A stretch of DNA of 64,000 nt, taken from contig CAYXSN010000004.1 in the NCBI GenBank assembly GCA_964467655.1, forward strand, positions 19,906-83,905, in the 5' to 3' direction. Under the pieces are notes generated by a model, which had not been told where the DNA came from, made no database searches, and saw only the letters and a list, made by a program, of their open reading frames with translations. This DNA comes from an uncultured Candidatus Saccharimonadales bacterium. Its GTDB lineage: Bacteria; Patescibacteriota; Saccharimonadia; UBA4664. A program made the translations under genes and the position numbers. This document shows positions 4,551-24,086 of the stretch, piece after piece (position 1 is the first letter of the stretch; each line of letters starts with the position of its first letter).

Positions 4551-4578
4551 AATATCCTCAAGTAGCCACCACGTAGAA

Positions 4579-4608
4579 CGCCCAGATCCCCCTCAAGGGA
4601 TCCGGGCG
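4579..4608 (+). repeat. repeat family R1, copy 2 (cgcccagatccccctcaagggatccgggcg)
   Basis: Differs from the 2639..2668 copy at one base. Same palindromic hairpin. Confidence 0.7.
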
Positions 4609-4915: not shown

Positions 4916-5557
4916 ATGACTGAGCATCCGCTCATGAGCCCGCCTGAGCCTGGGCCAAAGATCCAGCGCCTCAGTCAACTACCAGATGGGACGGTTCGAC
5001 TATCCCTCGAACGGGCATTGAAGGCCGCACCGGTTTTGTTTGGCCACATGTCGGACACGCCGGATCTGGATACCGTCGCTCTTGGCATCTTTGATCGTCC
5101 GGCTGGCGACCTGCCCCCGGGTTGTGCCCGCGACCGGGCATGCCCGTATGACGACACCGGTATCCATAGCCGGTCGGTCATGCTGCCGTTGCAAGTGGCC
5201 AGCCATGTAGGCGCTCGGGCAACCGACTCGACTGAAGGCAGGCTCAATCCCGAGACTATCAGGTACATCCAGGCTCATTCAGCGACGTATTTTGCGTCAT
5301 CAAACTGGCTGACCCACCAGCGACGCGAGGCCCGGCCCGGTGATACTCGTTCCTATGGTGCAGTTGTCATCAGAGTACGGGTCGGTAATCGGGCATTGAG
5401 CTTCACTGTCGCTGTCAGCAGTGCGGCCCCACCCCACCGGGACCAAGAACTGGCCTATCTGGTGGGCAATGCCGTTGTTGCCGACCTCACAGCTAGCGAA
5501 CTGATCGTGCCCATATTGCCTGAATCCCCTACCTTTGTGCTGCGGCCGCCGTTCTGA
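4916..5557 (+). CDS. hypothetical protein
   Basis: The ORF is 4856..5557. ATG 4916 (MTEHPLMS) is the likelier start. It is followed by a hairpin terminator at about 5600..5635. Confidence 0.45.
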   Translation: MTEHPLMSPPEPGPKIQRLSQLPDGTVRLSLERALKAAPVLFGHMSDTPDLDTVALGIFDRPAGDLPPGCARDRACPYDDTGIHSRSVMLPLQVASHVGARATDSTEGRLNPETIRYIQAHSATYFASSNWLTHQRREARPGDTRSYGAVVIRVRVGNRALSFTVAVSSAAPPHRDQELAYLVGNAVVADLTASELIVPILPESPTFVLRPPF

Positions 5558-5641
5558 CTGGCGCAGCCAATTGACACAACCCCCAGAGCCCCGGACATAT
5601 GATGATGTCCGGGGCTGTACTTTTGTCAGATGAAACGTTTG

Positions 5642-6055
5642 TTAGTCGAGAATGTCGATATTACACCACGAACTAGCACCGCCCGGTGCATTGTTGGCAA
5701 ACCATACCCGTACCCATACGCCGCCACTGGTGTAGCCGCCGTGGTTCGGAGTGAAGGTAGTAGAGCTCGCTGTTCTGGTTTGAGTCCATACGAGCTGACT
5801 TTGATTGGCGTAAATCTCAACGGTGATGTCGGATCTCGAAAATGGTACCGAATTTGACGCACTCACACTCTTGGCGATCGATACACCATTGGCTACGTCC
5901 CAGGTGACCGTGGCGTTATGCTTGCCTGCAATATTCCAACATGAGCCTGATCGACTGTAGACCGAGGCATGAGCGGGCACGAAGGGCACCAATGTTGCAA
6001 CTAACATGCCAGCTACAACGGCGAACATTTTCAGCGAACGAGGAATACTAACCAT
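5642..6055 (-). CDS. small secreted protein (signal peptide, two Cys), hypothetical
   Basis: 137 aa. N-terminal signal peptide (MFAVVAGMLVATLVPFVPAHA). AT-rich promoter region upstream (6060..6280). Confidence 0.6.
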   Translation of the reverse strand: MVSIPRSLKMFAVVAGMLVATLVPFVPAHASVYSRSGSCWNIAGKHNATVTWDVANGVSIAKSVSASNSVPFSRSDITVEIYANQSQLVWTQTRTASSTTFTPNHGGYTSGGVWVRVWFANNAPGGASSWCNIDILD

Positions 6056-6284
6056 CGCAAACTCCTTATATTATTCTTATGTTTTTAACATATATCAGGT
6101 AACGACGCCCTTTTATGAGTAAACGGTCCAATTCTTGAGGTAATGAGATTCACAATTTTTGGTGTTTTGACTGAACTGATCAAGAGCGCAAGTCACGCGG
6201 GCTTAATGCTGTACAATGCTCGTATAATGTGGTATGGTTTGCCCTGTTCATTGTGTTAGTTTCGGCTGAGGAGGTATCCGCCAG

Positions 6285-7049
6285 ATGAGGTGGACTCAGA
6301 GATACCGATTACTCATCGCAATCCTGGCTGCGATCTTGATTGTGGTTGTGATCATGCCGTGGTTGCTGCATGTCGCCACTAGTGCCGATAGCGCACCCAC
6401 TGCAGCGCCAAGACCGACCCCCAGCAAAGCTGGTCTGATGCCTACACCGGTACCGGTCGTGCCAAGCTGCCTGCTGACTACACCGGTTACTCGGTCGCCA
6501 GCCGGTACGCCCGCGGACTTCCGAGCTAACGCTCCGGTTGGCCAAGGCCCGCAGCACAAGGAAAGCAGCATGAGCTTCGGTTGGAGTCTGGCTCCCACTG
6601 GACTCAACCCGACGGCTCTGGACAGCATGAGCGCGAACGAGGCCAAGAGGGCGGCTACCCTTGCGGTTATCAATCTCGCCCAGTATGTCTGCGAGAACCC
6701 ATTGCAGGCCATGAGCGTGCTCGTTGGCCTCGACTGGACCTGGGACCCCGCAACCACGCCATTGACTCATCAAGAGATGGTGGACAAGATCTGGCGGTTG
6801 GCCGATGAATGGCAGCGCCCATCCCTGGTCTACGAAGCACCGTTCGTGGCGGGTGAGGCCGTCACCTATCAGGTGCTTCGCGGTAGCGCGCCAGTAGTGC
6901 AGTCTACCCTGTACCGCTATGAGGGACCCCGGTTGTTCCTGACGACCAAGGGTTCCTATGGCACAAAGCGTTATTTGATTGACCTCCAAAGCGGTGGCCA
7001 GGTGGTTGACCAGCTTGACCACACCAACAGCTTCTTATCGAGGGGCTGA
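6285..7049 (+). CDS. membrane-anchored hypothetical protein (N-terminal TM helix, Pro/Thr-rich linker, globular domain)
   Basis: 254-aa ORF with an aggagg RBS upstream. One TM helix (LLIAILAAILIVVVIM). Confidence 0.55.
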   Translation: MRWTQRYRLLIAILAAILIVVVIMPWLLHVATSADSAPTAAPRPTPSKAGLMPTPVPVVPSCLLTTPVTRSPAGTPADFRANAPVGQGPQHKESSMSFGWSLAPTGLNPTALDSMSANEAKRAATLAVINLAQYVCENPLQAMSVLVGLDWTWDPATTPLTHQEMVDKIWRLADEWQRPSLVYEAPFVAGEAVTYQVLRGSAPVVQSTLYRYEGPRLFLTTKGSYGTKRYLIDLQSGGQVVDQLDHTNSFLSRG

Positions 7050-7097
7050 AGTTCTACTCGGGCCCGGATGACACCAGTCGTCCGGGCCCATACCATT

Positions 7098-7394
7098 CTA
7101 GGCTTCGAGCTTGACTAACCGGTAGCTATGGTTGGTCACGGCATCCTTGATAATACCCAGCTCGCTCTCGATTTGTTCGAAACGTTCGTCGATTTGCTCG
7201 AAGCGCTGGTCGATCTGTTCGAAACGTTCGTCGATTTGGTCGAAGCGCTCATCCATCTGGGCAAACCGGTCATCTATCGCCAAAAACTGCTCGGCGCAAG
7301 CTGTGGCCAGATTATTGATATCGCCTTGAATTGCCTGAAACCGCGGTTCGAGCGCTTCTTTGATGAGATTGATATCGGTAGGAGTGAGAGCCAT
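7098..7394 (-). CDS. small coiled-coil protein with tandem heptad repeats (DERFEQI x5)
   Basis: Internal ATG at 7394 (MALTPTD). The longer listed ORF overlaps the promoter region. The DNA carries 42-bp tandem repeats at 7176..7259. Confidence 0.55.
   Translation of the reverse strand: MALTPTDINLIKEALEPRFQAIQGDINNLATACAEQFLAIDDRFAQMDERFDQIDERFEQIDQRFEQIDERFEQIESELGIIKDAVTNHSYRLVKLEA
7176..7259. repeat. tandem 42-bp repeat x2 (ttcgaaacgttcgtcgatttgNtcgaagcgctNNtcNatctg), with an underlying 21-nt period
   Basis: Seen directly. It encodes the DERFxQI heptads of the 7098..7394 gene. Confidence 0.85.
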
Positions 7395-7486
7395 AGCGTA
7401 ACCTTTCTGAAAGCTTATTGTAGCAATATTGTTACCAACATTATACCGTACAAAAGCCGTATGTGCCAGATACGGGCTGCACCATT

Positions 7487-10400
7487 TTATAACCGCACAA
7501 TCCGCCGAGCTGGTTTGCTTGCACGAGGCGATGCGCCGCCCTGGCTCTTCGGCCGGGTGCCGCCGCTCCCCCGTCGTCGGCGCCAGTGTCGCCAACCTGT
7601 CATGCCCAAGTAGCCCAGACACCCGGCGAGGGTGAGGCCGCTGATGATGAGACCAACATAAAACCAACGCTGCGGTGTAAACTCGGCCACCAGCTCCAGA
7701 TCGTAGGTGCCGTCGGGATTGGCGTGGCAGAGGTTTTGTTGTTTGCAGAGCTTGTCGACGTCGATGTACCAACCGTTGGCAAAGTCGTTGAGCTTGAAGT
7801 GGTCGCTATCGGCGATGGCGTCGGGTTTGGCCCAGGGGACCCAGCTGTTGATGCCCTGAACTTTGCCGTTATTGATTTCGAGGCGCCATTTCGAAAAGTA
7901 GTTTTGGTTCATGGCTAGATAAAATGGCTTTTCTGCCGACTTGACGCTGATACTATGCTTTACCGGACTAGCCGTGTGATGCTCTACCGATTTTGGCATC
8001 GAGGTAATGGTGGGACTATCAGATAACAGAACGTATTTGCCCGTGATGTTTGGCAGCCGGTCTAGCTTCATATCGCTGTATTCAACAACATTTACTTTGC
8101 CTGATTGGGGCTCATAGGCATACAAATATATCGTTGCGCTTGTGGCGCCAGCAGGTGCTTTGAACTTGATTGATGCCTGCGTACTCCCGCCGCTCTGTTC
8201 TGACCCTTTTAACCGATCCGACAGGTATGTTCCGGCCGGGTCATTGAAGCCAATATAGTAGCCAGCCGCAGTGTCACTTGAGGGCTTGTACTCAAAGTCG
8301 AGCATGTAGTCTCCCGAATCGACGACACTTACGTTTGTATTGGCACAGGCAATGTGATTGCGCGACGTGAGCTTAACCAACGAGCCGGGTCCGCGTTTGT
8401 CGACTACCAGACTAATGTCTGAGCGCTCGTCGGACGCACTACAATCGACTACCTTTTGGGGCCAATCATTCAGGTATCGCCTTTCGAAATTATTGGGAGT
8501 TCCGACATATTCAGCATTACTGACTTGTGTGTTGCCTATCGCCTTTTTAACCACCTGGTCGGCAGCGATGAGCTTGACTGCTTGGCTCTCGATAACTTCA
8601 TATACCGAAACATTGGCATAGCGCGCCACATTTGTCTTATCGATATCAGTCCCAGAAAACGCATACAAGAAGAAGTTCGAAGCATCGACATTTGCTGGGG
8701 TGGTCACGATCTTAGAGTAACGGTGCCATGAGTCATCGGCGGTGTTGGTCGACCAGCTACTATTTATCTCGCTGCCTTTACCCGCATAGATGGCATACCC
8801 GATCTTGGAGTGACTTGGACTGGCATAGTCAAAACTGATCAGGTATTGTTTGCCGCTTTGCAACGTAACGCCAGTGCGAGTACATGCAATGTGTCCCTTG
8901 GCGACTAATTCCAGTGCCTTCGTGGCTTGCTTGGCGTCCTTATCGAGGAGCCGCATGCTCAACTCTGCCCGCGAGCTTTCAATGGCACAGTCTTCCACTT
9001 TGGGTTGCCAGAGGCCCCTACTGAAATCGCCGTTTTGTATCATATTTTCATCACGTGCCGAGATTACTTTTGCCGTTGTCGCTCCTTGGCGGTTGGCAAT
9101 CTCGACGGGATTATCTGAGCTGATCGGCGTATAGCTGTTGTTGGCTTCAACGAAGTAGCGTCTCTGTGGGCGCCGCTCGATTGATGTGGTTTCGTATTTC
9201 TGCTGATCTTGCCTAAAAGGTGTGGTGCCATCGAGGGTTAGCAGGCCTTCATCATGGGCAGAGATGGTGATTCTTGTAGCATCGCTCACGGCGCGGATGA
9301 CAGGAGCGCTGGCAGTCTTGTACAGCGTGGCCGGCTGACTGTCGGTGGCAACCACCGGCTGGTCGTGAATTCTACCTGAAATCGGATCGATATTGGCGGT
9401 GGTTACGTTTGCAAATAGTGGCTCAATATGAGCTGTTGGCATCTTTACGTTATCGGTCGTGTAGTAATAATTTGGCTTGGCCAAGGTTGCTGTCACAAAT
9501 TCATTGACTGCTTTAAAATTATTGCGTCCCGTAAAGCTATACAGATTGTCGGTAACTGAAATGAATTCCTTGGGTTGTGGGTCGATCAGTTCATAGACCG
9601 CCAGATTGGGCGTGTCCATCTTTTGCTTGAAATGGCCGGATTTTTGGATGCCGTTTTGGAGATCATGAATGCTCAAGGGCGATTTACCGTAGGCATGCGC
9701 CCAATCGTAGTTACTGTCCTTGCGCACCACAACGTATTTGATATTACGTCTGGCGAGGTTGGCCGTCTGGACGTCTGTAGCAGTAAAATCGGCTTCAACG
9801 TCGTAATTGAACTTATCAATGGTGGCACCGCCGATATCAGTTGAAATGATGGACGTGCCCGATAGTAGCCTCAAGATGTCGTTGCCAATATAACCTTCTT
9901 TTCCATCGCCCCACTTACTCGATATCCAGGCTGTGTGTTGCAGCGGCAAGGACAGGGTTAGGGCATGAGCATCGGCCTTGAGAAAATCCGCTACTTGATA
10001 GTAGTCTTGTGGTATTGCTATCTGGGCGGCTGGTCTAATGCCATTGTTTGAATTAAAGATCTGGCCGGTCCAAACAGGGAATCCCAGCACCATAATGATG
10101 AGCGCTGCAACCGAGCGATACCATAACGCCTTGGCGCTACTTACCCTCAGTGGGATCGAAAAAGCCAAGAATAAGGTTAGTAGGTAGCCGAGGGCAACAA
10201 TAATGCCGAGTTTTTCGTAGGCCGCCCGGAACGCCAAAAATGGTACCGGAAATGTCTGGAATAGGAATACAAAGAAGCCGCCGAAGGGTTCGTGCGAGCC
10301 TTTGGCTAGGAAACTACCAACCAATACCATAGCTACTGCCAGTATGACCAGCCGCCAAGCTTTGCGGAGGATGTTTTGGTTGAGTAGTACAACAATAAGA

Positions 10401-11389
10401 GCAAGCGGAAAAATAAACGTTAATATCTTGAATGGTGATGCAATGAATAAATCCGCCCAGGGAAACCAGCGGCCGCCAATTTTGTCGGATAGACTGTAAT
10501 AGCCGTTGAGCGTTAGGACATTTAAGAACGAGGCGTTACTACTAATGACATTGAGTATTGAGAACGAGCCATCCAGGTTTCCGCCGCCCGTGGATTTGGC
10601 TGTGCTATCGGCAACATTGAAGAATTGCGGCAGCAAATACCACAGATTTGTAGATATCCAGACCACAATACCTGTTGCCATGAGGAGTGCGAATCGCCGC
10701 AGCGGCATATCAACTAACGCCAACAGCGATACGCCACCGAGAATGCCGATCATGATAAAGAGGAATGATAAATTCGTGAGCGCTACAGATACAAACCCGG
10801 CCGTTACAAACGATAGTGCGATTACATACGCAATCCGTCCAGTATCAAGGAATTTCAACTGAAGCCAGATGAGCAATGGCAGAGCCGCATAAAAAATGTA
10901 CAGAAATATGATCATCCGCCAGCCATTGATCGCAATGTACAAATTCGACATGTAAAACAGTGCTGGTACGGTTAGCGCCCATGTATTCCTGGTGAGGCTG
11001 TATTTGGTTTGCAGATATTCCAGCAGTACAATGGCACTCCAACCTGTTACTACGAGGACTCCAAAAAAGAATAGTGCCTGCGACGCCACAGCGTTCAAGC
11101 CAACCAATTGAAATATCCCGATGAGCACAAAGAGCGGCACAATGGCATAACCGGTGGCATCGATAATGCCGCCACTATATTGAGGCTTCCAACCAAACGA
11201 AAAGTTGTGGGCATGCTCTAAAGGATTGCCAATAGACCACGTACTATCGGCATAAAACAGTAGCCGCCCGCTTGAGTACCACATACCGATCGTTATCAGT
11301 GCTGCTAACGCGACAATGGCGTATGGCAGCCATCGCTGATTATTGAGCCACTTATGCATGCGCGCCCCCAAGTTGTTCAATAACTTCAC
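7487..11389 (-). CDS. giant membrane glycosyltransferase-like protein: N-terminal multi-TM GT-C-like domain, large extracytoplasmic carbohydrate-binding-like domain, C-terminal TM anchor. Architecture resembles arabinofuranosyltransferase AftD (DUF3367)
   Basis: 1300 aa with about 12-14 N-terminal TM helices and a C-terminal TM plus Arg-rich tail. It sits in an operon with GT2/GT2/GT4 genes. The family assignment is inferred from architecture. Confidence 0.5.
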   Translation of the reverse strand: MKLLNNLGARMHKWLNNQRWLPYAIVALAALITIGMWYSSGRLLFYADSTWSIGNPLEHAHNFSFGWKPQYSGGIIDATGYAIVPLFVLIGIFQLVGLNAVASQALFFFGVLVVTGWSAIVLLEYLQTKYSLTRNTWALTVPALFYMSNLYIAINGWRMIIFLYIFYAALPLLIWLQLKFLDTGRIAYVIALSFVTAGFVSVALTNLSFLFIMIGILGGVSLLALVDMPLRRFALLMATGIVVWISTNLWYLLPQFFNVADSTAKSTGGGNLDGSFSILNVISSNASFLNVLTLNGYYSLSDKIGGRWFPWADLFIASPFKILTFIFPLALIVVLLNQNILRKAWRLVILAVAMVLVGSFLAKGSHEPFGGFFVFLFQTFPVPFLAFRAAYEKLGIIVALGYLLTLFLAFSIPLRVSSAKALWYRSVAALIIMVLGFPVWTGQIFNSNNGIRPAAQIAIPQDYYQVADFLKADAHALTLSLPLQHTAWISSKWGDGKEGYIGNDILRLLSGTSIISTDIGGATIDKFNYDVEADFTATDVQTANLARRNIKYVVVRKDSNYDWAHAYGKSPLSIHDLQNGIQKSGHFKQKMDTPNLAVYELIDPQPKEFISVTDNLYSFTGRNNFKAVNEFVTATLAKPNYYYTTDNVKMPTAHIEPLFANVTTANIDPISGRIHDQPVVATDSQPATLYKTASAPVIRAVSDATRITISAHDEGLLTLDGTTPFRQDQQKYETTSIERRPQRRYFVEANNSYTPISSDNPVEIANRQGATTAKVISARDENMIQNGDFSRGLWQPKVEDCAIESSRAELSMRLLDKDAKQATKALELVAKGHIACTRTGVTLQSGKQYLISFDYASPSHSKIGYAIYAGKGSEINSSWSTNTADDSWHRYSKIVTTPANVDASNFFLYAFSGTDIDKTNVARYANVSVYEVIESQAVKLIAADQVVKKAIGNTQVSNAEYVGTPNNFERRYLNDWPQKVVDCSASDERSDISLVVDKRGPGSLVKLTSRNHIACANTNVSVVDSGDYMLDFEYKPSSDTAAGYYIGFNDPAGTYLSDRLKGSEQSGGSTQASIKFKAPAGATSATIYLYAYEPQSGKVNVVEYSDMKLDRLPNITGKYVLLSDSPTITSMPKSVEHHTASPVKHSISVKSAEKPFYLAMNQNYFSKWRLEINNGKVQGINSWVPWAKPDAIADSDHFKLNDFANGWYIDVDKLCKQQNLCHANPDGTYDLELVAEFTPQRWFYVGLIISGLTLAGCLGYLGMTGWRHWRRRRGSGGTRPKSQGGASPRASKPARRIVRL

Positions 11390-12464
11390 TCAAGGCACGG
11401 GCTTGTTGCCGTACATCGAAATATTTGTTTGTGCGTTTGGCATTGTTCGCCTGGACCGATGCCAGATGTCGAGGCTCGCTCAGCAAGCTCTCAACGGCGG
11501 CGATGACGGCTTTTGAATCGTTTTGAGCGACCACAATATTGTCTGCGCCCACGATTTCAGGTAAGGCTCCCGCATCGGTGGTGATTACTGCCAAACCGCA
11601 CGCCATAGCCTCGACGAAGCTAAAACCAAACTGTTCTGAGGTGATCTTGAGTTTGTACTTGTACATGTCGCGGCAGGGCATGACGAGGATGCCGTGCTGC
11701 TGGAGTACGCTTGGCAATTGCTCATTTGGTAGCGGCCCAAGATATGAAAATTGTGGGTATTTATCGACATAGCTTTTGATTGTATCTGCATACGGGCCCT
11801 TGCCGATGACGGTCATTTTGATATCTGGATTCTTCGGCAATACGGCATCGGCAACTTCGAGGAAGATATCGATGCCTTTGTGAGGCTTAAGACCGCCAAC
11901 AAAAATGAGATTTCGATTGGTTTGTGAGTGTTTGACACTTTGAAAAAGATGCAGGTCTATGCCCGGATACACTACCTTCGCCTTATCTGGAGGTGCGCCC
12001 AGAGCCAGTACACAATCGCGAGCTTTGTTTGATACGCACACAAATAGATCGGCGTGTTTGATGACATAGAGCCGATTGCCTATGTGTGAGGGTAGATAGT
12101 GTAGTGGATGGCGCGGTATGAGCTCGTATACCAGTACCACGACCTTTTTGCCGTGCTTGTGAGCATACTCGGTGAACTGTTTGGCTATGGATGAAAAAAC
12201 TTCGAGGACAATGATAACATCGACATCTGCGAGGTACCGTTCGAAGCCAGTATAGGTTACCAATTTGGCAGTTGAATGGTACTTACCAGCGAATAGGCGG
12301 CTTTCCTGGCTCTGTACCTGGCAGTATTCGACATTGTCGGGCTTTGTGGTGGGGTAGGATGCAAAGTCGATATCGAGAAACTTGATTTTCTCAACCGGCA
12401 TGCGCGAAAACCAGTGGTACTCGTAGTTGGGACGACTATCGTGTGAGACGTAAGCGATTTTCAT
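11352..12464 (-). CDS. glycosyltransferase family 4 (GT4)
   Basis: 370 aa with GT4 motifs (GGLKPHKGID; EQFGFSFVEAMACGLAVITTDAGALPE = E-x7-E). Translationally coupled with its neighbours. Confidence 0.8.
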   Translation of the reverse strand: MKIAYVSHDSRPNYEYHWFSRMPVEKIKFLDIDFASYPTTKPDNVEYCQVQSQESRLFAGKYHSTAKLVTYTGFERYLADVDVIIVLEVFSSIAKQFTEYAHKHGKKVVVLVYELIPRHPLHYLPSHIGNRLYVIKHADLFVCVSNKARDCVLALGAPPDKAKVVYPGIDLHLFQSVKHSQTNRNLIFVGGLKPHKGIDIFLEVADAVLPKNPDIKMTVIGKGPYADTIKSYVDKYPQFSYLGPLPNEQLPSVLQQHGILVMPCRDMYKYKLKITSEQFGFSFVEAMACGLAVITTDAGALPEIVGADNIVVAQNDSKAVIAAVESLLSEPRHLASVQANNAKRTNKYFDVRQQARALSEVIEQLGGAHA

Positions 12465-13306
12465 TTCCGATGAGCCTTACCTGACCGCTTTAATACTTCC
12501 GGTTCGCCGCGGAGCATGCCGGTGGCTCCGGCCAGATACTTTACAAACATGTAGTACCAAAACGCCGTGAAGAGCTTGGGTTGTTTGATGAGGTCTTTTT
12601 GGAGTTGGATGAATTGGGGTCGGAAGAAGTTGAATTGTTTGACACTGCGAACGCCGGCTTTTTGGTTGTATTTGCCTATGGTTCGGCCGTAATAGTGGAA
12701 CTTACGCCAGACATCGCCGATGGTTTTGGGCTCGCCGATGTGGGTTTCCACAGCGTCAACGTGAGCCCATTTGTAGCCAGCGTCCACCATACGGTTGTGT
12801 AGATCGAAATCCTCACCGGCCACGAGTGTTTCATCGAAGCCACCTAAGGCATCAAAGACCGAGCGCTTGAAGAAGCGGGCCCCCACGATGGAAGTGTCGT
12901 TTTTGTAGGTTTCACGTTCCAGGTAGCGTACATGAGCCCAGATACTGTCGCCCTGGGAACGGTTATGTACCGCAAGTGCATCATAGCCTTCGGCCATTTT
13001 GGCGACACATTTGGCGACCACATCGGGCTCAAGTACAAATTCGAGGCCGATCCGGTACATGTACTCCCCTGTGGCTTTGGTGACGCCATAGTTGAACTGA
13101 GTTGAGCGCTCGGGTCCGAGCTGGTAGAACTGGTCGGCATATTGTTTGACAATATCTGGTGTGCCGTCAGTCGAAAAGTTGTCTACGACGATTAACTCAA
13201 TGTGCGGGTACGTTTGCGCTTTGACGCTCTGGAGGCTGGCGTGCGCGGCTGGAGCGTTGTTTTTGCAGGCTATAACAATTGAGACTAATGGTTGTTTGGC
13301 TGCCAT
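12461..13306 (-). CDS. glycosyltransferase family 2 (GT2)
   Basis: Start chosen at ATG 13306 (MAAKQPLVSIVIACKN). GT2 signature IELIVVDNFSTDGT and GEDFDLHNR. Paralog of the upstream GT2. Confidence 0.75.
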   Translation of the reverse strand: MAAKQPLVSIVIACKNNAPAAHASLQSVKAQTYPHIELIVVDNFSTDGTPDIVKQYADQFYQLGPERSTQFNYGVTKATGEYMYRIGLEFVLEPDVVAKCVAKMAEGYDALAVHNRSQGDSIWAHVRYLERETYKNDTSIVGARFFKRSVFDALGGFDETLVAGEDFDLHNRMVDAGYKWAHVDAVETHIGEPKTIGDVWRKFHYYGRTIGKYNQKAGVRSVKQFNFFRPQFIQLQKDLIKQPKLFTAFWYYMFVKYLAGATGMLRGEPEVLKRSGKAHRK

Positions 13307-14124
13307 TTGTTCCCTCGAAATTTGGCCAGCACAAAGCCGGCTCCCCCGAAGCTGAATTTGAGTAGCAGATACCCAGCTAACTGCAGGCTCTTGACCGGAT
13401 TTTGCATGAGGCGTTTGCCACGACAATGTGCGAATGCCATCAAGTATTTGAGCTGCCCATTGAACTCGCCGGGATTGGCTTTTTGGTATCGCACCGAGTC
13501 TTTGCCGTAGTGATACATTTTTACCAGATGCGGCCAGAGCTTTGTGGGCTCACCCAAGTGCAGGGCCTCGGCGTCGATGAAGGCGGTCTTGTAGCCGGCT
13601 TTGTTGAGCTTGTTTTGAAAGTCGTAATCTTCGCCGGCGGTAATGGCTTCGTTGAAGCCGCCAATGGCCTGATAGACAGATTTCTTGATGAAACGGGCCG
13701 AGGAGTGCTGAAGGTCGTATTTGTACATGTCGACCTCAAACTTTCTGATGCGGGCAATCCAGCTAATGCTGGGATCGGGTGAGTTGTGTACCACCACAGC
13801 GTCGGCGCCCTCAGTGGCCCGCCTGATGCATTGATCGATGACGGCGGGATCGAGCACGAAATCGGCATCCACTTTGTAGACATACTCGCCTGTGGCTTTG
13901 GTGACACCAAAGTTTACTTGGGCCGAGCGCTCCGGCCCGTGGTTGTACACGTGCTGAGTGTAGCGCTGGGCGATGGTTTTGGTGGTGTCGGTGGAATCGC
14001 GGTCGACCACAATGATTTCGATGGGTTTGTACGTTTGATCGGCGATTGATTTGAGGCAGGCCTCAATTGTGGCGGCGCTATTGCGAGTGGGAATGATGAC
14101 TGAGACAAGCTGGTTACTGGGCAT
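13285..14124 (-). CDS. glycosyltransferase family 2 (GT2)
   Basis: 279 aa with VSVIIPTRNS...IEIIVVDRDSTDTT and GEDYDFQNK. First gene of the GT2-GT2-GT4-AftD-like operon. Confidence 0.8.
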   Translation of the reverse strand: MPSNQLVSVIIPTRNSAATIEACLKSIADQTYKPIEIIVVDRDSTDTTKTIAQRYTQHVYNHGPERSAQVNFGVTKATGEYVYKVDADFVLDPAVIDQCIRRATEGADAVVVHNSPDPSISWIARIRKFEVDMYKYDLQHSSARFIKKSVYQAIGGFNEAITAGEDYDFQNKLNKAGYKTAFIDAEALHLGEPTKLWPHLVKMYHYGKDSVRYQKANPGEFNGQLKYLMAFAHCRGKRLMQNPVKSLQLAGYLLLKFSFGGAGFVLAKFRGNKWQPNNH

Positions 14125-14448
14125 ACCGCTTTAGTTTATCAGATCTGGTGGGAGGTGGCAAAACGGGATGGAGGAACTTTCGGAGAAAGAATATGTCTCA
14201 CCGAGACTCTCGCTCGTACCCCTCAAAAATACATCCATGAAGGGTTGTGATCTGTGACAGCAACGCTGACATTGGTTTGAGGGATGTGGCTACGGGTATC
14301 TTCTTCATCAAGCATGGCCCGGGGTTTGGTGACCAGATCTCCTATCAGTGGGTAGCTGGCTAAAAAGTAATAAATGCTCGATTGAGCCCAGCCTCGATAT
14401 TGCGGCCTTTCAGTCCGATCGACTCCGAAACGTAAGGCGTTTTGCATG

Positions 14449-14489
14449 CCCGTCCCGAGTGCACTCACTACGAGTGTGCTCGGGACGGG
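14449..14489. repeat. 41-nt palindromic hairpin repeat R2, copy 1 (cccgtcccgagtgcactcactacgagtgtgctcgggacggg), followed by a T-run
   Basis: 18-bp stem with G-U wobbles. A near-identical copy is at 17768..17808. Confidence 0.8.
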
Positions 14490-14554
14490 CGGTTTTTTTG
14501 ATGATTATAAAAAGGTTGGGGGGGCCGCTCACAGTGTGAGCGGCCCCCGGGAGG

Positions 14555-14824
14555 TCAGTAGTCGTCTTCGGGTTGGGGGTCGGCGGGGTAGGCTGCCCCG
14601 CCGACGAACAGGACGGCTCCCAGGCCAGCAATGACGCCGGCCAGCAGCTCCCGGTATGGGTGGCCGCTACAGATCGGCCAGATCAATATTGCGAGCCCGA
14701 TGAGCGCCGGGCCACCCACAAGCCCTGTGTCGCGCGGGCCCTCTACACTGCCTAGCGCGTTAGCGCAGAAGAACAGGACGACGAATCCGAGGATGCTGAT
14801 GAGTGCGGCCAAGTGAGTACCCAT
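14555..14824 (-). CDS. small membrane protein (2-3 TM), hypothetical
   Basis: 89 aa and hydrophobic. It is followed on the minus strand by hairpin ggggggccgctcacaGTGTGAGCGGCCCCC plus a T-run (14515..14550). Confidence 0.5.
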   Translation of the reverse strand: MGTHLAALISILGFVVLFFCANALGSVEGPRDTGLVGGPALIGLAILIWPICSGHPYRELLAGVIAGLGAVLFVGGAAYPADPQPEDDY

Positions 14825-14988
14825 GGTGGCTCCTTGATACTAGGAAAATGCGGCTGTTGACCTTCTATTATTATATCACGTTTTCTACTTTATGTAAATA
14901 TATTGCTCTGTTGAACTTTTTATTTTATAACTTGGCACGCTTCAGGTGCCAGTTGGTCTCTCCCTAGTGCATTGGCCTGCATGAGGCT

Positions 14989-15036
14989 CTCACGAGTGAT
15001 TGGTCAAACGGTCTCCACTTGTGGGGGCCGTTTGCA
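14989..15036. repeat. 48-nt direct repeat R3, copy 1 (ctcacgagtgattggtcaaacggtctccacttgtgggggccgtttgcat)
   Basis: Second copy at 16832..16880 with 3 mismatches. Contains an imperfect hairpin aaacggtctccac/gtgggggccgttt. Confidence 0.8.
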
Positions 15037-15083
15037 TATCTGGGTATAAGTTGATCCCCCGACCTGGCTGGCCGGGGGATGTG

Positions 15084-15893
15084 TCAAGAGGCTTGCTCTT
15101 GGTAGAAGAGTTGGCGGTCTTTGCGGTAGATACGCGCATAGACCCATGGCGGATAGTGACGGCAGATCTGTCGGCGGGCCGACAGCCTGTTCTGGGCAAC
15201 CGACGTGTAATAGGTGTGCAGTTCACGCCGAACCCAGTTTGGTCGATACCCTAAACGTTCGAAAATCTGATTTTCGGTCAACCAGCCATTTGCGGATGGC
15301 ACCTCGGGTTTGTGCCCCAGAGACTTGAAGTCGGGCACGTAATAGTGATCGGTGATCTTGTTGGTACCCGAAGCCCGAAGCCGTCGAGACTGGAGATTGT
15401 GCTCGTTGATGTGGCGGCGGATCTTGTATTTTGACCAGCCGGTCAATTGGCAGATCTCGCCTTCGGTGAGCCAGTCGATCTCGGCGAATGCTGGTAGATA
15501 CGCCTTGAGAGCTTGGTATGATTCGGGTGAGATAGCGGCCACGGGGCGACCATTGCGGCCGCGACGCTGCTCCACAGGGCCAAATTCAGGGTGGAGCTTG
15601 AGGTGCCGGTAGAACGTGGTCTCGATGATGCCGCAGTCGAGGCAGGCTTGGTACACGCTCACCCATCGCCTCAACCGGGGATACTGGCGCAAATTGGCAG
15701 TGTCGGCCTTGATTTGTTCGTAACATTCTTGCCTGTAGAACCTGGGCCGTTGTCCACCGCCAGTGCCGGCTAAGATGTAGTCTTTGGCATATGGACTGCG
15801 CCTGATTCTGGTCCGCACGAAGTCTCTGGGAAGTCCGAGGGACCGAGCCATACGCGCGGCACTCCAGATATAGGGGGTAGGTGCATTGCTCAT
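15084..15893 (-). CDS. DNA-binding protein with four tandem HTH-like repeats (excisionase/MerR-type HTH motif W-L-T-E-x-E-I-x-x-L-G-x6-RR)
   Basis: 269 aa. The four repeat segments were aligned by eye (YIWSAARMARSLGLPRDFVRTRI / YQACLDCGIIETTFYRHLKL / DWLTEGEICQLTGWSKYKIRRHI / GWLTENQIFERLGYRPNWVRREL). It is flanked by R3 direct repeats. Confidence 0.5.
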   Translation of the reverse strand: MSNAPTPYIWSAARMARSLGLPRDFVRTRIRRSPYAKDYILAGTGGGQRPRFYRQECYEQIKADTANLRQYPRLRRWVSVYQACLDCGIIETTFYRHLKLHPEFGPVEQRRGRNGRPVAAISPESYQALKAYLPAFAEIDWLTEGEICQLTGWSKYKIRRHINEHNLQSRRLRASGTNKITDHYYVPDFKSLGHKPEVPSANGWLTENQIFERLGYRPNWVRRELHTYYTSVAQNRLSARRQICRHYPPWVYARIYRKDRQLFYQEQAS

Positions 15894-16068
15894 GGTTAAC
15901 CTCTGTCGGGTAGAGTTCTGGCAACTGCCCCACTTGTACCTGATTTGAGTTGTTTGTGCAAGATTGGCGTACTGAGATGGCTATTTTTGTTTACAAAATG
16001 TTATTTATGTTGTATAATCTAGCCACTGTACTTTGATTCCGCTCCCTTGCCAACCGAGAGAGGCAATT

Positions 16069-20704: not shown

Positions 20705-21829
20705 CTATCTCAGATGTTGGCAGAAATCCTGGTACGCCCTGTCGAATGTTAGCTGGCGAGCGAATTCCCAGGCTGCCCGCTGGGTAGCAACATAGGTGTC
20801 GGCATCACTGAGCGCGGTCACTATGGTTTTGGCCAGGCCGGCCGGAGTATTGGCGGCCGTCACATAGCCCGCTCGGCCTCGGTCAACCGCATCATGTAAG
20901 CCGTCAACGTCGTACACCACAGCCGGTGTGCCCTGGCTGGCGGCTTCTGACACAATGAGGCCCCAACCTTCTTTGACTGACGTGACGGTGATGAGATGAC
21001 AACGTTGCATGAGCTCGATCTTGCGCTGATCAGTTGTACGGCCCAACAGCTGGATATGCCGACGATACGGCGAGGCCGTCACTGCTGATTGCACGCGGCG
21101 ACCATACGCACCGCTGTAGTCGCCCGAGATGATGAGTCGCAGATCCGGTAGGTGGCGCTTGGCCATCTCAAACGCCTGGAGCTGATGCAGGGTACGTTTC
21201 ATGCTCCGGACCGCTCCATGCGACAAGATGGTTGGATGCGGGTATTTTGTGATGACGCTGAGCCGGGCAATAGGTTTGATTTGGATACCTTCACTGATGA
21301 GCTTGATGGCCGAGGGTCGAAAGCCGTGGCGCATGAGATCCTGCCGTGTTGATTCTGAGACGGTGATAACGTCGCCAGACCCGCTCAACAGGCGCAGATA
21401 GAGAGGCTCAACTAGGTAGCCAACCACCGATATGGGCAACGGCATTTCGTAGAACCAGATCTGGCGCGCCAATTGATGGAACAATTGGATCGTGCGGACC
21501 CCGGCATAGAAGCGTGCAAAGTACGGTACCGTGTTGCATTCGTCGATCACCAGCTGAGGCGCCAGCTGCCGGCGATGGCGGTGGTAGTACCAGGCGGTGG
21601 TCAGATACGTACTCAGCCGATTGCCGGTGCGCACGATGTGGTACCCGGCTGGATCGGTGCCGTGCCGGGGCGCCGGCTGGCCGGTAGCGGGATCAGTGTA
21701 ACCGCCTGTGAGCAGGGTGACGGTGTGGCCAGCGGCTACCAGGCGGGTCATCAACTCATGGGCGACCACCTCGGCACCACCAGCCGTGGGGTGGCCACGG
21801 TCTTTCCACGCCAACCAAACAATGTTCAT
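20705..21829 (-). CDS. glycosyltransferase family 4 (GT4)
   Basis: 374 aa. GT4 C-terminal motif EGWGLIVSEAASQGTPAVVYDVDGL. Confidence 0.75.
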   Translation of the reverse strand: MNIVWLAWKDRGHPTAGGAEVVAHELMTRLVAAGHTVTLLTGGYTDPATGQPAPRHGTDPAGYHIVRTGNRLSTYLTTAWYYHRHRRQLAPQLVIDECNTVPYFARFYAGVRTIQLFHQLARQIWFYEMPLPISVVGYLVEPLYLRLLSGSGDVITVSESTRQDLMRHGFRPSAIKLISEGIQIKPIARLSVITKYPHPTILSHGAVRSMKRTLHQLQAFEMAKRHLPDLRLIISGDYSGAYGRRVQSAVTASPYRRHIQLLGRTTDQRKIELMQRCHLITVTSVKEGWGLIVSEAASQGTPAVVYDVDGLHDAVDRGRAGYVTAANTPAGLAKTIVTALSDADTYVATQRAAWEFARQLTFDRAYQDFCQHLR

Positions 21830-22821
21830 GCCGACGGCTCCCGGTGACGAGCGTCATGCCGGCGGGGGCGGCGCAGCACATACAGCGGCCTGTTGGTCAC
21901 TTCGGCATGAATCGCCCCAATGTAGAGCGACATCAGGCCGAGGCTCGCCAACACCATACCTACCATGAATACCAGCAGGACCGCTAATTGCGCCGTACCT
22001 GTGAAATTCATGTTCCACGGATCATCAAGTAGATATTTTTCAACATACATAAATAGGCCCAATGGCAGTGAAATACTCGTAATAATCACTCCCAGGTAGC
22101 CGGCCAGCTTGAGTGGGAATAAGCTCAGCGAGATCACACTGTGCATCGCCAGCGTAAAGAGCTTGCTCCAACCATAACTGGCCCGGCCGGCGTGGCGCTG
22201 TCCAGGCATGAAGGTAATCTCGGCCCGGCGGAAACCGAGCCAATCGATCAGGCCCCGAGTCATGCGGTTGCGCTCGGTAAACCGATTAAACTCATCGATC
22301 ACTAGGCGGTCGAGCAGCCGAAAATCGGTGGCGCCCGGTGTGACCGCCTGCTCGGCGATCAGGTTGATGAAACGATAAAACAGATGTGAGGTGGTGCGCT
22401 TGAGCCAACCGGCATGACGCCTCGACCGGGCACGAACTCCCACCACCACTTCCGCGCCCTCCTCCCAAGCCGCCAGGAATCGGGCGATGAGCTGCGGGGG
22501 GTGTTGCAGATCAGCGTCGATCATGATGGCAGCCTCACCCCGGGCCCGATGCAAGCCGGCAGTAATGGCCACTTCTTTGCCGAAGTTGCGCGCTAGTTCA
22601 ACTACCTGGATCCGCTGATCATGCCGGGCTAGACGGCGCGCGATGGTCACTGTTTCGTCACTGGAGCCATCGTCGACCATGAGGATTTCAAATTGATACG
22701 GCAGGGTGGCGAGAGCGGCTGTGAGCACCTGGTGAAGTTCAGGTAAACCAGCCTCCTCATTGTGGCAGGGCACGATGAGAGTGATAAGCGGTCGGCTGGG
22801 GACTGATGCTGGCTGACTCAT
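21826..22821 (-). CDS. GT2 polyprenol-phosphate sugar transferase (Ppm1/ArnC/GtrB-like), with C-terminal TM helices
   Basis: Start chosen at ATG 22821 (MSQPASV), giving an ATGA overlap with the upstream gene. Motifs LITLIVPCHNEE, MVDDGSSDET and 2-3 C-terminal TM segments. Confidence 0.75.
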   Translation of the reverse strand: MSQPASVPSRPLITLIVPCHNEEAGLPELHQVLTAALATLPYQFEILMVDDGSSDETVTIARRLARHDQRIQVVELARNFGKEVAITAGLHRARGEAAIMIDADLQHPPQLIARFLAAWEEGAEVVVGVRARSRRHAGWLKRTTSHLFYRFINLIAEQAVTPGATDFRLLDRLVIDEFNRFTERNRMTRGLIDWLGFRRAEITFMPGQRHAGRASYGWSKLFTLAMHSVISLSLFPLKLAGYLGVIITSISLPLGLFMYVEKYLLDDPWNMNFTGTAQLAVLLVFMVGMVLASLGLMSLYIGAIHAEVTNRPLYVLRRPRRHDARHREPSA

Positions 22822-24086
22822 AATGTGCGCTTTCCCCGCCAGCCCGTCGCCAGCGTCGTCGCCAATAAGATAGTACTTCCGGCCAGCAAACCGGTGACGA
22901 TGTCGGCTATCTGCTGATGCCACATCAGGAGCCAGGCCATCATAGCTCCAAGCCCCACGATAGCTGCGGGTGCTGCCCAAACCCGCCGCAGGGCGACCTG
23001 GTACAAAAGCAACAGATTTGCCAATGAGAGAATAAAAATGGCTAGGCTCAGGGTGGGCAGCAAATGAGCGACTTCGGCATAGCGCGGCCCGACCAACAGA
23101 CTCGTGACCCAACCGGGCTGCCACACGAATAATCCCAAGGCGCTACCACCCAACAGCACCAATAGCGCAACTGACCGCCGCAGCAACGCCCGGTTGGCGG
23201 CAGCCGGCCCCTGTGGTACAACCGATGCCACCAGTACGCCCGTGAGTGGTCCCGTCAAAAAGAACATGATGCGTGCAACTGTCGCGATGCCGGCATACAG
23301 GCCAGCTTCGGCGGGCGCAAAATAGTGTTTGGCAAACAGGATGTCGAGCGACAAGATGGTATTGACCGCCAACGACGTGAGCAGCACCAATCCGGCGTAC
23401 CTGAGTTCTGGGCGGATTAGGCCGACGTCTGGGCGGCGGAGCACCAGGTAGTGACGGAAACTATTGGGACGACCCAACCGCCGGGCTACCATGGTACTGT
23501 AGCCAAGACTCAATACCTGAGAAGCCACCACTCCCATGACAGCGCCAATGGCCCGGAGCCCGGCCAGCACGAGGCCGGCCGACAGTAGTAGTTTGGAACC
23601 CGCGCCCAGAATGTTGGCGGTTGAGAGCTGGACAAAGCGCTGATGGGCCTGGATATAGGCTCCTGCAAACGCGCCGGGTACACCCAGTAGCACCGACAGC
23701 GCCAGCAAGAGAAATGGCCAGGGTGACGTAAAGTTGAGGAAGCCTTGCAACCATGTGCTGGCGAGTGCCATGGCGACACAGAGCGCTAGTCCGATCCACA
23801 AGGCGATCCTTTCGAGCTCAGCTAGCAAGGGAGCCTGGTCAATGGGCCGAGGATATCGCTTGACGACGTTAATGGTCACAAGACTCAAGACCGATAATAA
23901 GACGCCGGTCTGGAGAAAAAACGAGATAATGGCCTGAACCTCTCCAAAATCGGCTGGCGAGAGCAACCGGCCCAGCACCGGATAATACAAATAGTTCAAG
24001 AACGATACGACAGTCGATCCTATGAAGAAGATGGCGTTTTGGCGCAGAAACGGACTATGGGCAATGGACCGCACGAGTGGTATCAC
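22818..24086 (-). CDS. polysaccharide biosynthesis / oligosaccharide flippase (Wzx-like MOP family) membrane protein
   Basis: 422 aa, polytopic. N-terminus is typical of Wzx-type 'polysaccharide biosynthesis protein'. Confidence 0.65.
   Translation of the reverse strand: MIPLVRSIAHSPFLRQNAIFFIGSTVVSFLNYLYYPVLGRLLSPADFGEVQAIISFFLQTGVLLSVLSLVTINVVKRYPRPIDQAPLLAELERIALWIGLALCVAMALASTWLQGFLNFTSPWPFLLLALSVLLGVPGAFAGAYIQAHQRFVQLSTANILGAGSKLLLSAGLVLAGLRAIGAVMGVVASQVLSLGYSTMVARRLGRPNSFRHYLVLRRPDVGLIRPELRYAGLVLLTSLAVNTILSLDILFAKHYFAPAEAGLYAGIATVARIMFFLTGPLTGVLVASVVPQGPAAANRALLRRSVALLVLLGGSALGLFVWQPGWVTSLLVGPRYAEVAHLLPTLSLAIFILSLANLLLLYQVALRRVWAAPAAIVGLGAMMAWLLMWHQQIADIVTGLLAGSTILLATTLATGWRGKRTL

Follow-up and report, generated by a model that had tools for sequence, protein, structure and literature searches.

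The window, a 64-kb stretch of DNA from an uncultured Candidatus Saccharimonadales (TM7/Patescibacteria), carries four co-directional, overlapping glycosyltransferase genes on the minus strand alongside housekeeping genes. The genes and the parts of the large membrane protein, the last of the four products, are as follows.

13285..14124, minus strand: GT2a, a family-2 glycosyltransferase of 279 aa and the first gene of the operon (PF00535, E 6.9e-26)
12461..13306, minus strand: GT2b, a family-2 glycosyltransferase of 281 aa from the ATG at 13306 (PF00535, E 2.3e-19)
11352..12464, minus strand: GT4, a family-4 (GT-B) glycosyltransferase of 370 aa (PF00534, E 1.3e-29)
7487..11389, minus strand: large membrane glycosyltransferase (putative), a 1300-aa ORF from the GTG at 11389, called as 1290 aa from the ATG at 11359
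9575..11389, minus strand: predicted GT-C catalytic super-domain, residues 1-605, with ~11-12 TM helices and an extracytoplasmic alpha/beta domain
8555..9052, minus strand: CBM_4_9-like beta-sandwich module 1, residues 780-945 (PF02018, AF2, Foldseek)
8030..8512, minus strand: CBM-like module 2, residues 960-1120, a paralogue of module 1
7487..8032, minus strand: C-terminal beta-sandwich (residues ~1134-1237), TM helix (1243-1263) and Arg/Gly-rich cytoplasmic tail (hydrophobicity, AF2)

Together these four genes (7487-14124) form one translationally coupled operon. The GT2a stop at 13285 and the GT2b start at 13306 overlap by 22 nt, an ATGA at 12461-12464 is common to the GT2b stop and the GT4 start, and the GT4 stop at 11352 overlaps the large gene by 8 nt if the latter starts at the ATG, or by more if it starts at the GTG. 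For GT2b the mechanical ORF reaches a TTG at 13426, and identical public contigs annotate the 281-aa form. The preliminary description of the locus had recognized the minus-strand GT2-GT2-GT4 series, the protein of ~1300 aa and the overlapping stops and starts, and Pfam matches and coordinates bear this out. Its observation that the region is AT-richer than its flanks also holds: GC is 50.6%, versus 55.6% for the remainder of the window, and every one of the lowest-GC 6.6-kb intervals in the 64 kb overlaps the operon. The GC3 of the operon genes (0.54-0.69) overlaps the range of housekeeping genes in the same window.

GT2b is a paralogue of GT2a. The top PDB sequence matches of GT2a come from heparosan and chondroitin synthases (their GT2 domains), and hydrophobicity analysis found no hydrophobic or TM-like segment in it. 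The top PDB matches of GT4 are PimB'/PimA/MshA-type enzymes. The two soluble GT2s and the PimA/PimB-like GT4 would act at the cytoplasmic face with nucleotide sugars. The set of one or two GT2s, a GT4 and a GT-C is conserved in all three other relatives examined: one (L004) keeps the order GT2-GT2-GT4-GT-C, another (L015) encodes a single 567-aa fusion of GT2a and GT2b followed by GT4 and GT-C, and in the third (L005/L006) the order is GT4-GT2-GT4-GT-C. A probable companion cluster lies elsewhere in the window.

20705..24086, minus strand: companion cluster (probable) of a Wzx-like flippase, a GT2 and a GT4, all assigned by Pfam
22818-24086, minus strand: Wzx-like flippase
21826-23124, minus strand: companion-cluster GT2
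20705-21829, minus strand: companion-cluster GT4

In L004 the same Wzx/GT2/GT4 trio directly precedes the GT-C operon, and in L005/L006 the GT-C gene shares one contiguous cluster with Wzx, GT2 and GT4 genes. Among the ~50 ORFs scanned there was no polyprenyl-phosphate sugar synthase, GtrA-type flippase, DPPR synthase or DprE.

From its N terminus, the large protein consists of a bundle of ~11-12 helices, an alpha/beta domain, two CBM_4_9-like modules, a last beta-sandwich, a re-entrant TM helix and an Arg-rich tail. At least 11 hydrophobic segments occur at residues 20-445 of the 1300-aa ORF and another at 1243-1263. Scanned alone, module 1 matches PF02018 at 26.6 bits (cut-off 25.9; E 8.3e-6); it is all-beta in the AF2 model, and its Foldseek matches are tandem-CBM proteins. 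Module 2 is 28% identical to module 1 (E 6e-13) and has no Pfam match of its own. The C-terminal module aligns with AftD residues 1218-1307 in the family profile (domain E 0.064), and the AF2 model of the C-terminal part (low confidence, pLDDT 56, from an alignment of four sequences) has a helix at positions 636-667 of that model. The multi-TM GT-C part, the carbohydrate-binding ectodomain and the C-terminal anchor of the preliminary description are therefore all recovered; the F5/8 type C domain that it suggested looking for is not supported, the modules being CBM_4_9-like and no F5_F8_type_C match occurring in the protein at E ≤ 0.1.

The protein had also been described as AftD-like. AftD is the mycobacterial alpha-(1->3)-arabinofuranosyltransferase (PF11847, GT-C_AftD/DUF3367; PDB 6W98, 6WBX, 6WBY). 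An hmmscan for DUF3367 was negative for the large protein itself, with no direct Pfam or NCBIfam match to DUF3367/GT-C_AftD at E ≤ 0.1; the likeness nevertheless emerged from iterated profiles and predicted structure. Since the narrow-family profile meets AftD only at E ~5 and there is no direct match, the link is transitive. It passes through homologues such as P0003, which is 38% identical to the large protein and matches PF11847 at E 2.3e-6; 18 of the 39 relatives sampled match this family (best E 6.1e-32). An N-terminal profile (A2) found 4545 cluster representatives, 796 of them with E ≤ 1e-30, and a family profile (A5) matched the M. abscessus AftD (6wbx/6w98) at E 1.6e-19 over residues 62-594. 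For the AF2 model of the N-terminal part, which is of moderate confidence (pLDDT 66, pTM 0.65, alignment of six sequences), the PDB matches are led by AftD 6w98 (probability 1.00, E 1.5e-8), with STT3/OST catalytic subunits in second place (E between 1e-5 and 3e-4). The iterated profile, the PDB profile and the AlphaFold model thus assign the first ~600 aa to the AftD branch of the GT-C enzymes, and the whole is predicted to belong, as a very divergent member, to the GT-C_AftD (DUF3367) superfamily.

Residue conservation was examined against the AftD active site. R388 and K393, both invariant, are the aligned counterparts of R357 and the essential K361 in AftD, and D48, also invariant, lies in the first external loop in the same motif as AftD D37/K39/D41. 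K361 is the one of five essential AftD residues that is clearly kept in position: E251 aligns with Gly, D474 with Asn (with an adjoining Asp), and the alignment of K39/D41 is ambiguous. D48, R388, Y391, K393 and many Pro, Gly and Trp residues are invariant in relatives down to 20-24% identity, and the same positions are near-invariant in a 40-sequence sample.

The role of CBMs and of lipid-linked donors in GT-C enzymes has been described (bioRxiv 10.1101/2019.12.22.885152; PMC11127046), as has, for AftD, an ACP-binding TM13-16 bundle (bioRxiv 10.1101/2019.12.22.885152). Both proteins have an N-terminal GT-C membrane domain with a soluble alpha/beta domain, and a large extracytoplasmic region of several beta-sandwich CBMs that is closed by a final beta-sandwich and a re-entrant TM helix; AftD is the top match in both sequence profile and PDB fold, and its R357/K361 motif is kept as FRxxYxK. 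On the other hand, identity is ~15%, there are two CBM_4_9-like modules rather than three CBMs, there is only one C-terminal TM helix and no four-helix bundle, the E251 and D474 positions are not kept, and the protein belongs to a Patescibacterium. As the window shows no genes of a decaprenyl-phospho-arabinose pathway, arabinofuranosyl activity should not be assumed for the large protein.

Another comparison is with the three-component extracytoplasmic glycosylation systems, namely GtrA/GtrB/Gtr* and the GT136 pentofuranose systems. In these, as would be the case here, a GT-C enzyme, which in GT136 carries a fused CBM, decorates a polysaccharide outside the membrane via a lipid-linked donor (PMC11127046). 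They differ from the present operon, in which a GtrB-like membrane GT2, a GtrA/MATE/SMR flippase and a polyprenyl phosphoribose synthase are all missing and the GT-C is partnered by two soluble GT2s and a GT4. The CBM-bearing GT-C enzymes characterized so far (AftD, Emb and GT136) transfer single sugars from polyprenyl-monophosphate donors (bioRxiv 10.1101/2019.12.22.885152; PMC11127046). By analogy with these enzymes, the large protein may work on the outside of the membrane, where it would transfer a sugar from a polyprenyl-phosphate carrier, a purely inferred donor, to a cell-envelope polysaccharide or lipoglycan that its CBMs hold. This step would probably follow export through the Wzx-type flippase cluster nearby. 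The sequence, structure and context evidence supports the earlier reading of the locus as a cell-envelope glycosylation operon.

Alternatively, the large GT-C could be an en bloc glycan transferase or polymerase, OST/PglB-like or Wzy/ligase-like, moving a Wzx-flipped polyprenyl-diphosphate oligosaccharide made by GT2/GT2/GT4 onto a growing chain, the cell wall or protein. STT3/PglB/AglB enzymes (GT-C_A fold) are the second-best fold matches across the whole N-terminal domain, in three genomes the GT-C operon has a Wzx-type flippase cluster linked to it, no Wzy, ligase or polyprenyl-monophosphate sugar synthase was found near the operon, and its GT2s are soluble rather than GtrB-like. However, the AftD matches are stronger than the OST ones in both sequence and structure, the tandem CBMs suggest that the acceptor is a glycan and not a peptide, and the single-sugar chemistry of the characterized CBM-bearing enzymes argues against en bloc transfer, which we consider unlikely.

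Downstream of the large gene lies a small gene for an acidic coiled-coil protein.

7395..7486, minus strand: intergenic spacer of 92 nt with a hairpin, a promoter-like sequence and a ribosome-binding site (GAAAGG)
7457-7475, minus strand: small hairpin in the spacer
7440-7469, minus strand: promoter-like CTGGCA-18-TATAAT, a consensus match only (10 of 12 positions)
7098..7394, minus strand: gene for the 98-aa coiled-coil protein (acidic), predicted to be transcribed separately
7170..7274, minus strand: five in-frame 21-bp heptad units (DDRFAQM, DERFDQI, DERFEQI, DQRFEQI, DERFEQI)
7060..7089, no strand: hairpin GGGCCCGGA...TCCGGGCCC between the coiled-coil gene and a convergent 254-aa ORF, read from the sequence

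The last hairpin has no T-run after it and is kept in two public contigs (L009 and L010) that are 98.7% and 97.6% identical to the window in adjoining DNA. The promoter-like region is kept in L009, L010, L012 and L011 (70% identical), next to three different upstream neighbours. No coiled-coil gene lies downstream of any homologous operon examined, and a 168-aa Saccharibacteria homologue stands alone amid housekeeping genes. By these sequence features the 98-aa gene is independently promoted and outside the operon, not its last gene as had been proposed. It belongs to a DxRFxQ(I/V) family and shares the heptad motif (here DxRFxQI) and the 21/42-bp DNA periodicity with members such as the 168-aa Saccharibacteria proteins (P0019, P0020 and P0067), which are likewise stand-alone small genes whose products have no TM segment; the 98-aa protein is shorter, with five heptads, and lacks their C-terminal extension. 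Such heptad-repeat proteins are widespread and uncharacterized, with sub-threshold coiled-coil Pfam matches only.

The array itself (TRF, 7163-7259) has periods of 21 (3.7 copies, 80%) and 42 (2.0 copies, 95%), and its last four 21-bp units make two 42-bp units identical at 38 of 42 positions. The 42-bp repeat of the preliminary description is thus real, with 21 bp as its base unit. Length variants, also foreseen there, do occur: L009 and L010 lack one 21-bp unit (aligned as window 7227-7247), giving five versus four heptads between strains at ~98.7% DNA identity, and the L009 array is mosaic, with a 21-bp indel and 4 substitutions in 105 bp, compared with 12 in the other 2683 bp. Relatives have 5, 5, 4 and 2 heptads, and the family 2-10. 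The 21-bp units would recombine or slip to give in-frame length variants over evolutionary time. By the textbook figure, one heptad corresponds to ~1 nm of coiled-coil rod, and each gain or loss would alter rod length accordingly.

The proposal that this gene ends a five-gene surface-polysaccharide operon, in which 42-bp slippage causes phase or antigenic variation, could draw on its adjacency on the same strand, the near-identical 42-bp units and the close strain with one unit fewer and a mosaic array. The context data largely refute it, given the 92-nt spacer whose promoter-like sequence is kept in three upstream contexts and the gene's absence from the homologous operons, and it is very improbable. 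With a repeat unit of 21 bp, slippage leaves the reading frame intact and gives no on/off switching; no hydrophobic signal or membrane segment was found in the 98-aa protein (pI 4.3), which makes a surface-antigen role unlikely, and on hydrophobicity alone the protein is probably cytoplasmic. Heptad number is usually stable, as 63 of 120 homologues in the 168-aa Saccharibacteria branch have exactly 7, and three independent assemblies of the window strain are identical. Phase or antigenic variation by this gene is not supported.

The least probable reading is that the large protein has lost catalysis and, anchored in the membrane, serves as a glycan-binding scaffold or takes part in exporting what the three cytoplasmic glycosyltransferases make. 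This would fit the unkept E251, D474 and K39/D41 counterparts and the missing direct HMM match, but not the invariance of D48, R388, Y391, K393 and many Pro, Gly and Trp residues, typical of a working active site, or the preserved tight coupling to glycosyltransferase genes.

We therefore favour, as the probable reading, a divergent AftD-superfamily GT-C in a coupled operon of four glycosyltransferases, with the coiled-coil gene a separate unit that has in-frame length variants. The operon module appears to differ between strains, in keeping with its low GC. Homology of L009 and L010 with the window ends at 7472, 15 nt past the stop codon of the large gene, and an unrelated gene occupies the large-gene site; the contigs extend just 542 nt and 332 nt upstream of this break, so that rearrangement instead of operon absence is possible. 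Gtr/GT136 glycosylation loci are strain-variable and alter surface glycan type (PMC11127046). The large protein would be a rare and possibly strain-variable form of an already known kind of enzyme.

The overlaps between the first four minus-strand genes (22, 4, and 8 nt for GT2a/GT2b, GT2b/GT4, and GT4/large gene) indicate a single translationally coupled operon. The relevant genes, together with a second glycan cluster in the window, are as follows.

13285-14124, minus strand: GT2a, 279 aa, glycosyltransferase (Pfam GT2)
12461-13426, minus strand: GT2b ORF (Pfam GT2); 281 aa from the ATG at 13306 according to gene callers on identical public contigs
11352-12464, minus strand: GT4, 370 aa (Pfam GT4)
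7487-11389, minus strand: large protein ORF, 1300 aa from a GTG or 1290 aa from the ATG at 11359
7098-7394, minus strand: coiled-coil protein ORF, 98 aa
20705-24086, minus strand: second glycan cluster (Wzx-like flippase, GT2, and GT4 by Pfam), 6.6 kb upstream of the operon
22818-24086, minus strand: the Wzx-like gene of that cluster (PF13440/PF01943)

The gene order of the operon is conserved among relatives. One related locus (L004) has GT2-GT2-GT4-GT-C, another (L015) has a fused GT2-GT2 followed by GT4 and GT-C, and a third (L005/L006) has the longer series Wzx-GT2-ManC-PMM-GT4-GT2-GT4-GT-C. A distant acidobacterial homologue is also encoded within a polysaccharide locus. Over stretches of 14-21 kb the window matches three public contigs, obtained from different samples, at 100% identity. 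The operon had been described as AT-richer than its flanks, and its GC content is indeed lower than that of the remainder of the window (50.6% vs 55.6%), and every one of the 6.6-kb segments of lowest GC across the 64 kb overlaps it. The shift is modest, however, and the GC3 range of the operon (0.54-0.69) overlaps with values of housekeeping genes such as that for the class II aminoacyl-tRNA synthetase (0.60). Further low-GC patches are present elsewhere in the window.

Besides this synthetase, the window carries housekeeping genes for cytochrome bd, dihydroorotate dehydrogenase, FolD, sortase, and tRNA-Glu. Subunits I and II of the cytochrome bd oxidase are both encoded in this Saccharimonadales genome (41422-43739, plus strand). 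The sortase gene lies directly downstream of a gene for a legume-lectin-domain protein of 527 aa (45772-48055, minus strand). This protein is a candidate sortase-anchored lectin of the cell surface, possibly relevant to how an epibiont attaches to its host. A Fic/DOC-domain gene (54911-56059, plus strand; 42.7% GC) has a GC3 of 0.42, far below all others in the window, and is a candidate recent acquisition. Both flanks of the operon (1-7049 and 14200-20700) contain some twenty ORFs of 55-425 aa without any Pfam match, and the flanking ORF at 15084-15893 has a weak HTH match. An 89-aa protein with three transmembrane (TM) segments is encoded at 14555-14824 (minus strand), preceded by a near-consensus promoter-like TTTACA-17-TGnTATAAT (14870-14898) and followed by two strong hairpins (~14520-14552 and 14447-14491, the latter with a 20-bp stem) that probably shield the glycosyltransferase operon from transcription arriving from upstream.

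The large protein has no family match or name in the sources searched. Taken literally, the suggestion that it would match DUF3367 (PF11847, GT-C_AftD) fails for the protein itself: neither the full sequence nor its N-terminal 605 aa matches PF11847 in Pfam at E <= 0.1, an NCBIfam scan gave no match, and the direct scans of both databases returned only a sub-threshold CBM_4_9 match. A word-indexed search of 5.8 billion proteins found only six relatives, and the same kind of search with the N-terminal alignment found only 3 proteins. When the PDB was searched with a narrow 7-sequence family profile, AftD (the mycobacterial arabinofuranosyltransferase) came up no better than E about 5, and the HMM of the N-terminal family profile gave no match to an AftD fragment.

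The GT-C and AftD similarity proposed in the preliminary description is nevertheless borne out by profile searches that pass through relatives. A homologue 38% identical to the large protein (P0003) matches PF11847 at E 2.3e-6. An exhaustive HMM search with a profile of the N-terminal 600 aa recovered 4545 cluster representatives (796 at E <= 1e-30), and among 39 sampled relatives found by the N-terminal profile at E <= 4e-49, 18 match PF11847 (best E 6.1e-32). The profile of these sampled relatives aligns with AftD of Mycobacterium abscessus (6WBX/6W98) over the full GT-C domain (E 1.6e-19) and, weakly, with its C-terminal beta-sandwich and TM module (domain E 0.064). The best PDB match of an AlphaFold2 model of residues 1-605 (pLDDT 66, pTM 0.65) is AftD (E 1.5e-8), followed by STT3-type oligosaccharyltransferases. 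Hydrophobic segments fall between residues 20 and 445, and the N-terminal region is predicted to adopt a GT-C fold, with a multi-TM bundle, an extracytoplasmic loop after TM1, and then a soluble alpha/beta domain. Based on the relatives, profiles, and model together, the relationship of the large protein to GT-C_AftD is real.

The similarity appears to extend only partially to the catalytic site. Five residues are essential in M. abscessus AftD: K39, D41, E251, K361, and D474 (bioRxiv 10.1101/2019.12.22.885152). We rebuilt the AftD numbering from the printed alignment and checked it against seven residues named in the same paper. R357 and the essential K361 of AftD align with invariant R388 and K393 (motif FRAAYEK), D474 aligns with N503, next to D504, and E251 aligns with a glycine (G268). 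The alignment of the K39/D41 loop is ambiguous within about 4 residues, and a family-invariant D48 lies in the same first external loop.

The carbohydrate-binding ectodomain and C-terminal anchor described for this protein can be recognized. F5/8 type C domains were rejected for the ectodomain, as none was matched. Scanned alone, residues 780-945 (module 1) match CBM_4_9 with 26.6 bits (cut-off 25.9), and residues 960-1120 (module 2) are a paralogue of module 1 (28% identical, E 6e-13). A low-confidence model of the C-terminal part is all-beta and resembles tandem-CBM proteins, with only generic tandem beta-sandwich/CBM matches in Foldseek (TM about 0.16). The two tandem CBM_4_9-like modules are predicted to bind the acceptor glycan, as the CBMs of AftD do, although AftD has three CBMs. 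The C-terminus of AftD comprises TM12 plus a TM13-16 bundle that binds acyl carrier protein (ACP) (bioRxiv 10.1101/2019.12.22.885152). In contrast, the large protein ends in a single hydrophobic helix (1243-1263) and an Arg-rich tail of ~35 aa, and the four-helix ACP-binding bundle is missing. Over the final 270 nt of the gene (7487-7760, minus strand), the GC content climbs to 62%; the Arg/Gly/Pro-rich tail encoded there is missing or much shorter in the homologues.

Because the direct HMM test failed and the protein lacks the ACP module and apparently several essential residues, we place it in the GT-C_AftD superfamily as a new, divergent member rather than an AftD orthologue, and make no claim about the sugar transferred. 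It is a remote homologue of AftD and, by analogy, would work alike. Recent transfer of a true aftD gene from an actinobacterial host can be dismissed, given an identity of ~15% and closest relatives in Saccharimonadales, then in other phyla such as Acidobacteriota. Our literature searches on DUF3367 and on Saccharibacteria arabinofuranosyltransferase found no report of such enzymes in Patescibacteria.

With AftD, Emb, and GT136 enzymes as models (bioRxiv 10.1101/2019.12.22.885152; PMC11127046), the cytoplasmic GT2, GT2, and GT4 enzymes would assemble a lipid-linked glycan for later export, and the GT-C enzyme would add a sugar from a polyprenyl-phosphate donor to a glycan held by its own CBMs. 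The operon GT4 resembles PimA/PimB/MshA. GT2a and GT2b are without a membrane segment and resemble generic GT2s, their best PDB relatives being polymerising or soluble GT2s. A serious rival is that the large protein performs en-bloc transfer in the manner of OST or Wzy. This is favored by the linkage of the GT-C operon to Wzx, and by the finding of no recognizable monophosphate-sugar synthase. The Wzx-like/GT2/GT4 trio of the window (20705-24086) is mirrored in L004, there just upstream of the GT-C operon, and in L005/L006 the Wzx, GT2, and GT4 genes are contiguous with the GT-C gene in one cluster; the Wzx-like gene itself recurs in L004 and L005. No Wzy polymerase was recognized near the operon, where several neighboring ORFs have no Pfam match. 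A GtrB-like role for GT2a or GT2b was rejected: both are devoid of TM segments, and they share no more than generic GT2 similarity with DPMS. In Gtr-type and GT136 three-component systems, the GT-C gene is adjoined by a membrane GT2 polyprenyl-phosphate sugar synthase (or PPPR synthase) and a small flippase, whereas this operon is without both and is not such a system. We saw no GtrB/GtrA-type genes in the window, no GtrA/MATE/SMR gene within the operon, and, with regard to arabinofuranosyl transfer from decaprenyl-phospho-arabinose, no arabinose-donor genes (UbiA/DPPR synthase, DprE) among the window ORFs scanned.

The preliminary description had the operon end with the coiled-coil gene. This does not hold, as a 92-nt spacer containing a small hairpin, a promoter-like CTGGCA-18-TATAAT, and a GAAAGG ribosome-binding site separates that gene from the large gene, and no coiled-coil gene follows the homologous operons in L004, L005/L006, or L015. 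In a 70%-identical relative (L011), a second copy of the coiled-coil gene lies upstream and the promoter block is unchanged. A 168-aa Saccharibacteria homologue is a stand-alone gene amid housekeeping genes. Since the promoter block is kept in different upstream contexts, the gene is missing after homologous operons, and its homologue stands alone, the sequence comparisons show that the coiled-coil gene is a unit independent of the operon. The tandem copies in L011 occupy 1-62 and 389-655, and the one that was read has two DxRFxQ heptads only.

Most telling for this independence are contigs of two related strains, L009 and L010, which share 98.7% and 97.6% identity with the window leftwards of 7472. 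Their similarity ends exactly at 7472, 15 nt beyond the stop of the large gene, and upstream of the break is a gene for an unrelated 156-aa membrane protein that has no tblastn match in the window. Another strain (L012, 98.6% identical) retains the large gene. Longer contigs of the apparently operon-lacking strain were not recovered by two exact-pattern scans of metagenome contigs. The operon appears to be variable between strains, with a rearrangement as the alternative. For the gene that converges on the coiled-coil gene, the predicted product has 159 aa in L009 (945-1424) and 254 aa in the window (6285-7049) despite ~99% identical DNA, which may reflect a start-site or frameshift difference.

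The 42-bp tandem repeats reported to encode DERFEQI heptads were confirmed by TRF (7163-7259: period 21, 3.7 copies; period 42, 2.0 copies, 95%). In frame, five 21-bp units (7170-7274) encode DDRFAQM, DERFDQI, DERFEQI, DQRFEQI, and DERFEQI, the last four forming two 42-bp copies identical at 38/42 positions. The a and d positions of the heptad are taken by phenylalanine and isoleucine, which is the canonical coiled-coil pattern. Copy number does vary between strains, with five heptads vs four at 98.7% identity and two in the 70%-identical relative, but the repeat is identical in three assemblies of the window's own strain. The shorter array of L009/L010 lacks one 21-bp unit through an in-frame deletion and is a mosaic of the window's units, with 4 substitutions and the indel in 105 bp, compared with 12 substitutions over the 2683 bp outside it. 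Two heptads are present in a 64%-identical protein, and among 120 homologues the run length ranges from 2 to 10 and is exactly seven in 63. These counts indicate that unequal recombination or slippage alters the copy number, though in most lineages the pace is not rapid.

It had been proposed that slippage in this repeat generates phase or antigenic variation. The units of 21 or 42 bp lie inside the coding sequence, in frame, and cause no reading-frame shift. Phase variation is excluded because the unit length keeps all changes in frame. Antigenic variation is unlikely: the coiled-coil protein is acidic (pI 4.3), has no hydrophobic segment (maximum KD19 0.61), and is predicted to be neither surface-exposed nor surface-modifying, and the loci compared show no conserved link between its gene and glycosylation genes. 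A tandem repeat adjoining a surface-glycan locus is insufficient to infer phase variation.

The locus is soundly annotated as a rare Saccharimonadales envelope-glycan module, for which the phase-variation angle fails. A far more speculative reading, which we regard as improbable, is that the GT2-GT2-GT4-GT-C module serves epibiotic Saccharimonadales as a "serotype" cassette that varies between strains. Its AftD-like enzyme, with outward-facing tandem CBMs, would build or remodel a surface glycan governing host-bacterium attachment or phage escape. Less probably still, the CBMs and enzyme could act directly on arabinan- or mannan-type envelope glycans of an actinobacterial host. If the cassette reading were true, host range would be determined in part by whether the cassette is present or absent in strains that share ~98% identity across the adjoining DNA.

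These findings do not overturn current understanding. They place the AftD architecture (GT-C, CBMs, and re-entrant helix) far outside Actinobacteria, without the ACP-binding module, and the GT-C_AftD placement provides a testable function for a membrane protein of 1300 aa from a Patescibacterium. Hardly anything is known about the envelope glycans of that group. The apparent presence/absence polymorphism of the operon hints at strain-to-strain differences in the surface glycans of these epibionts.
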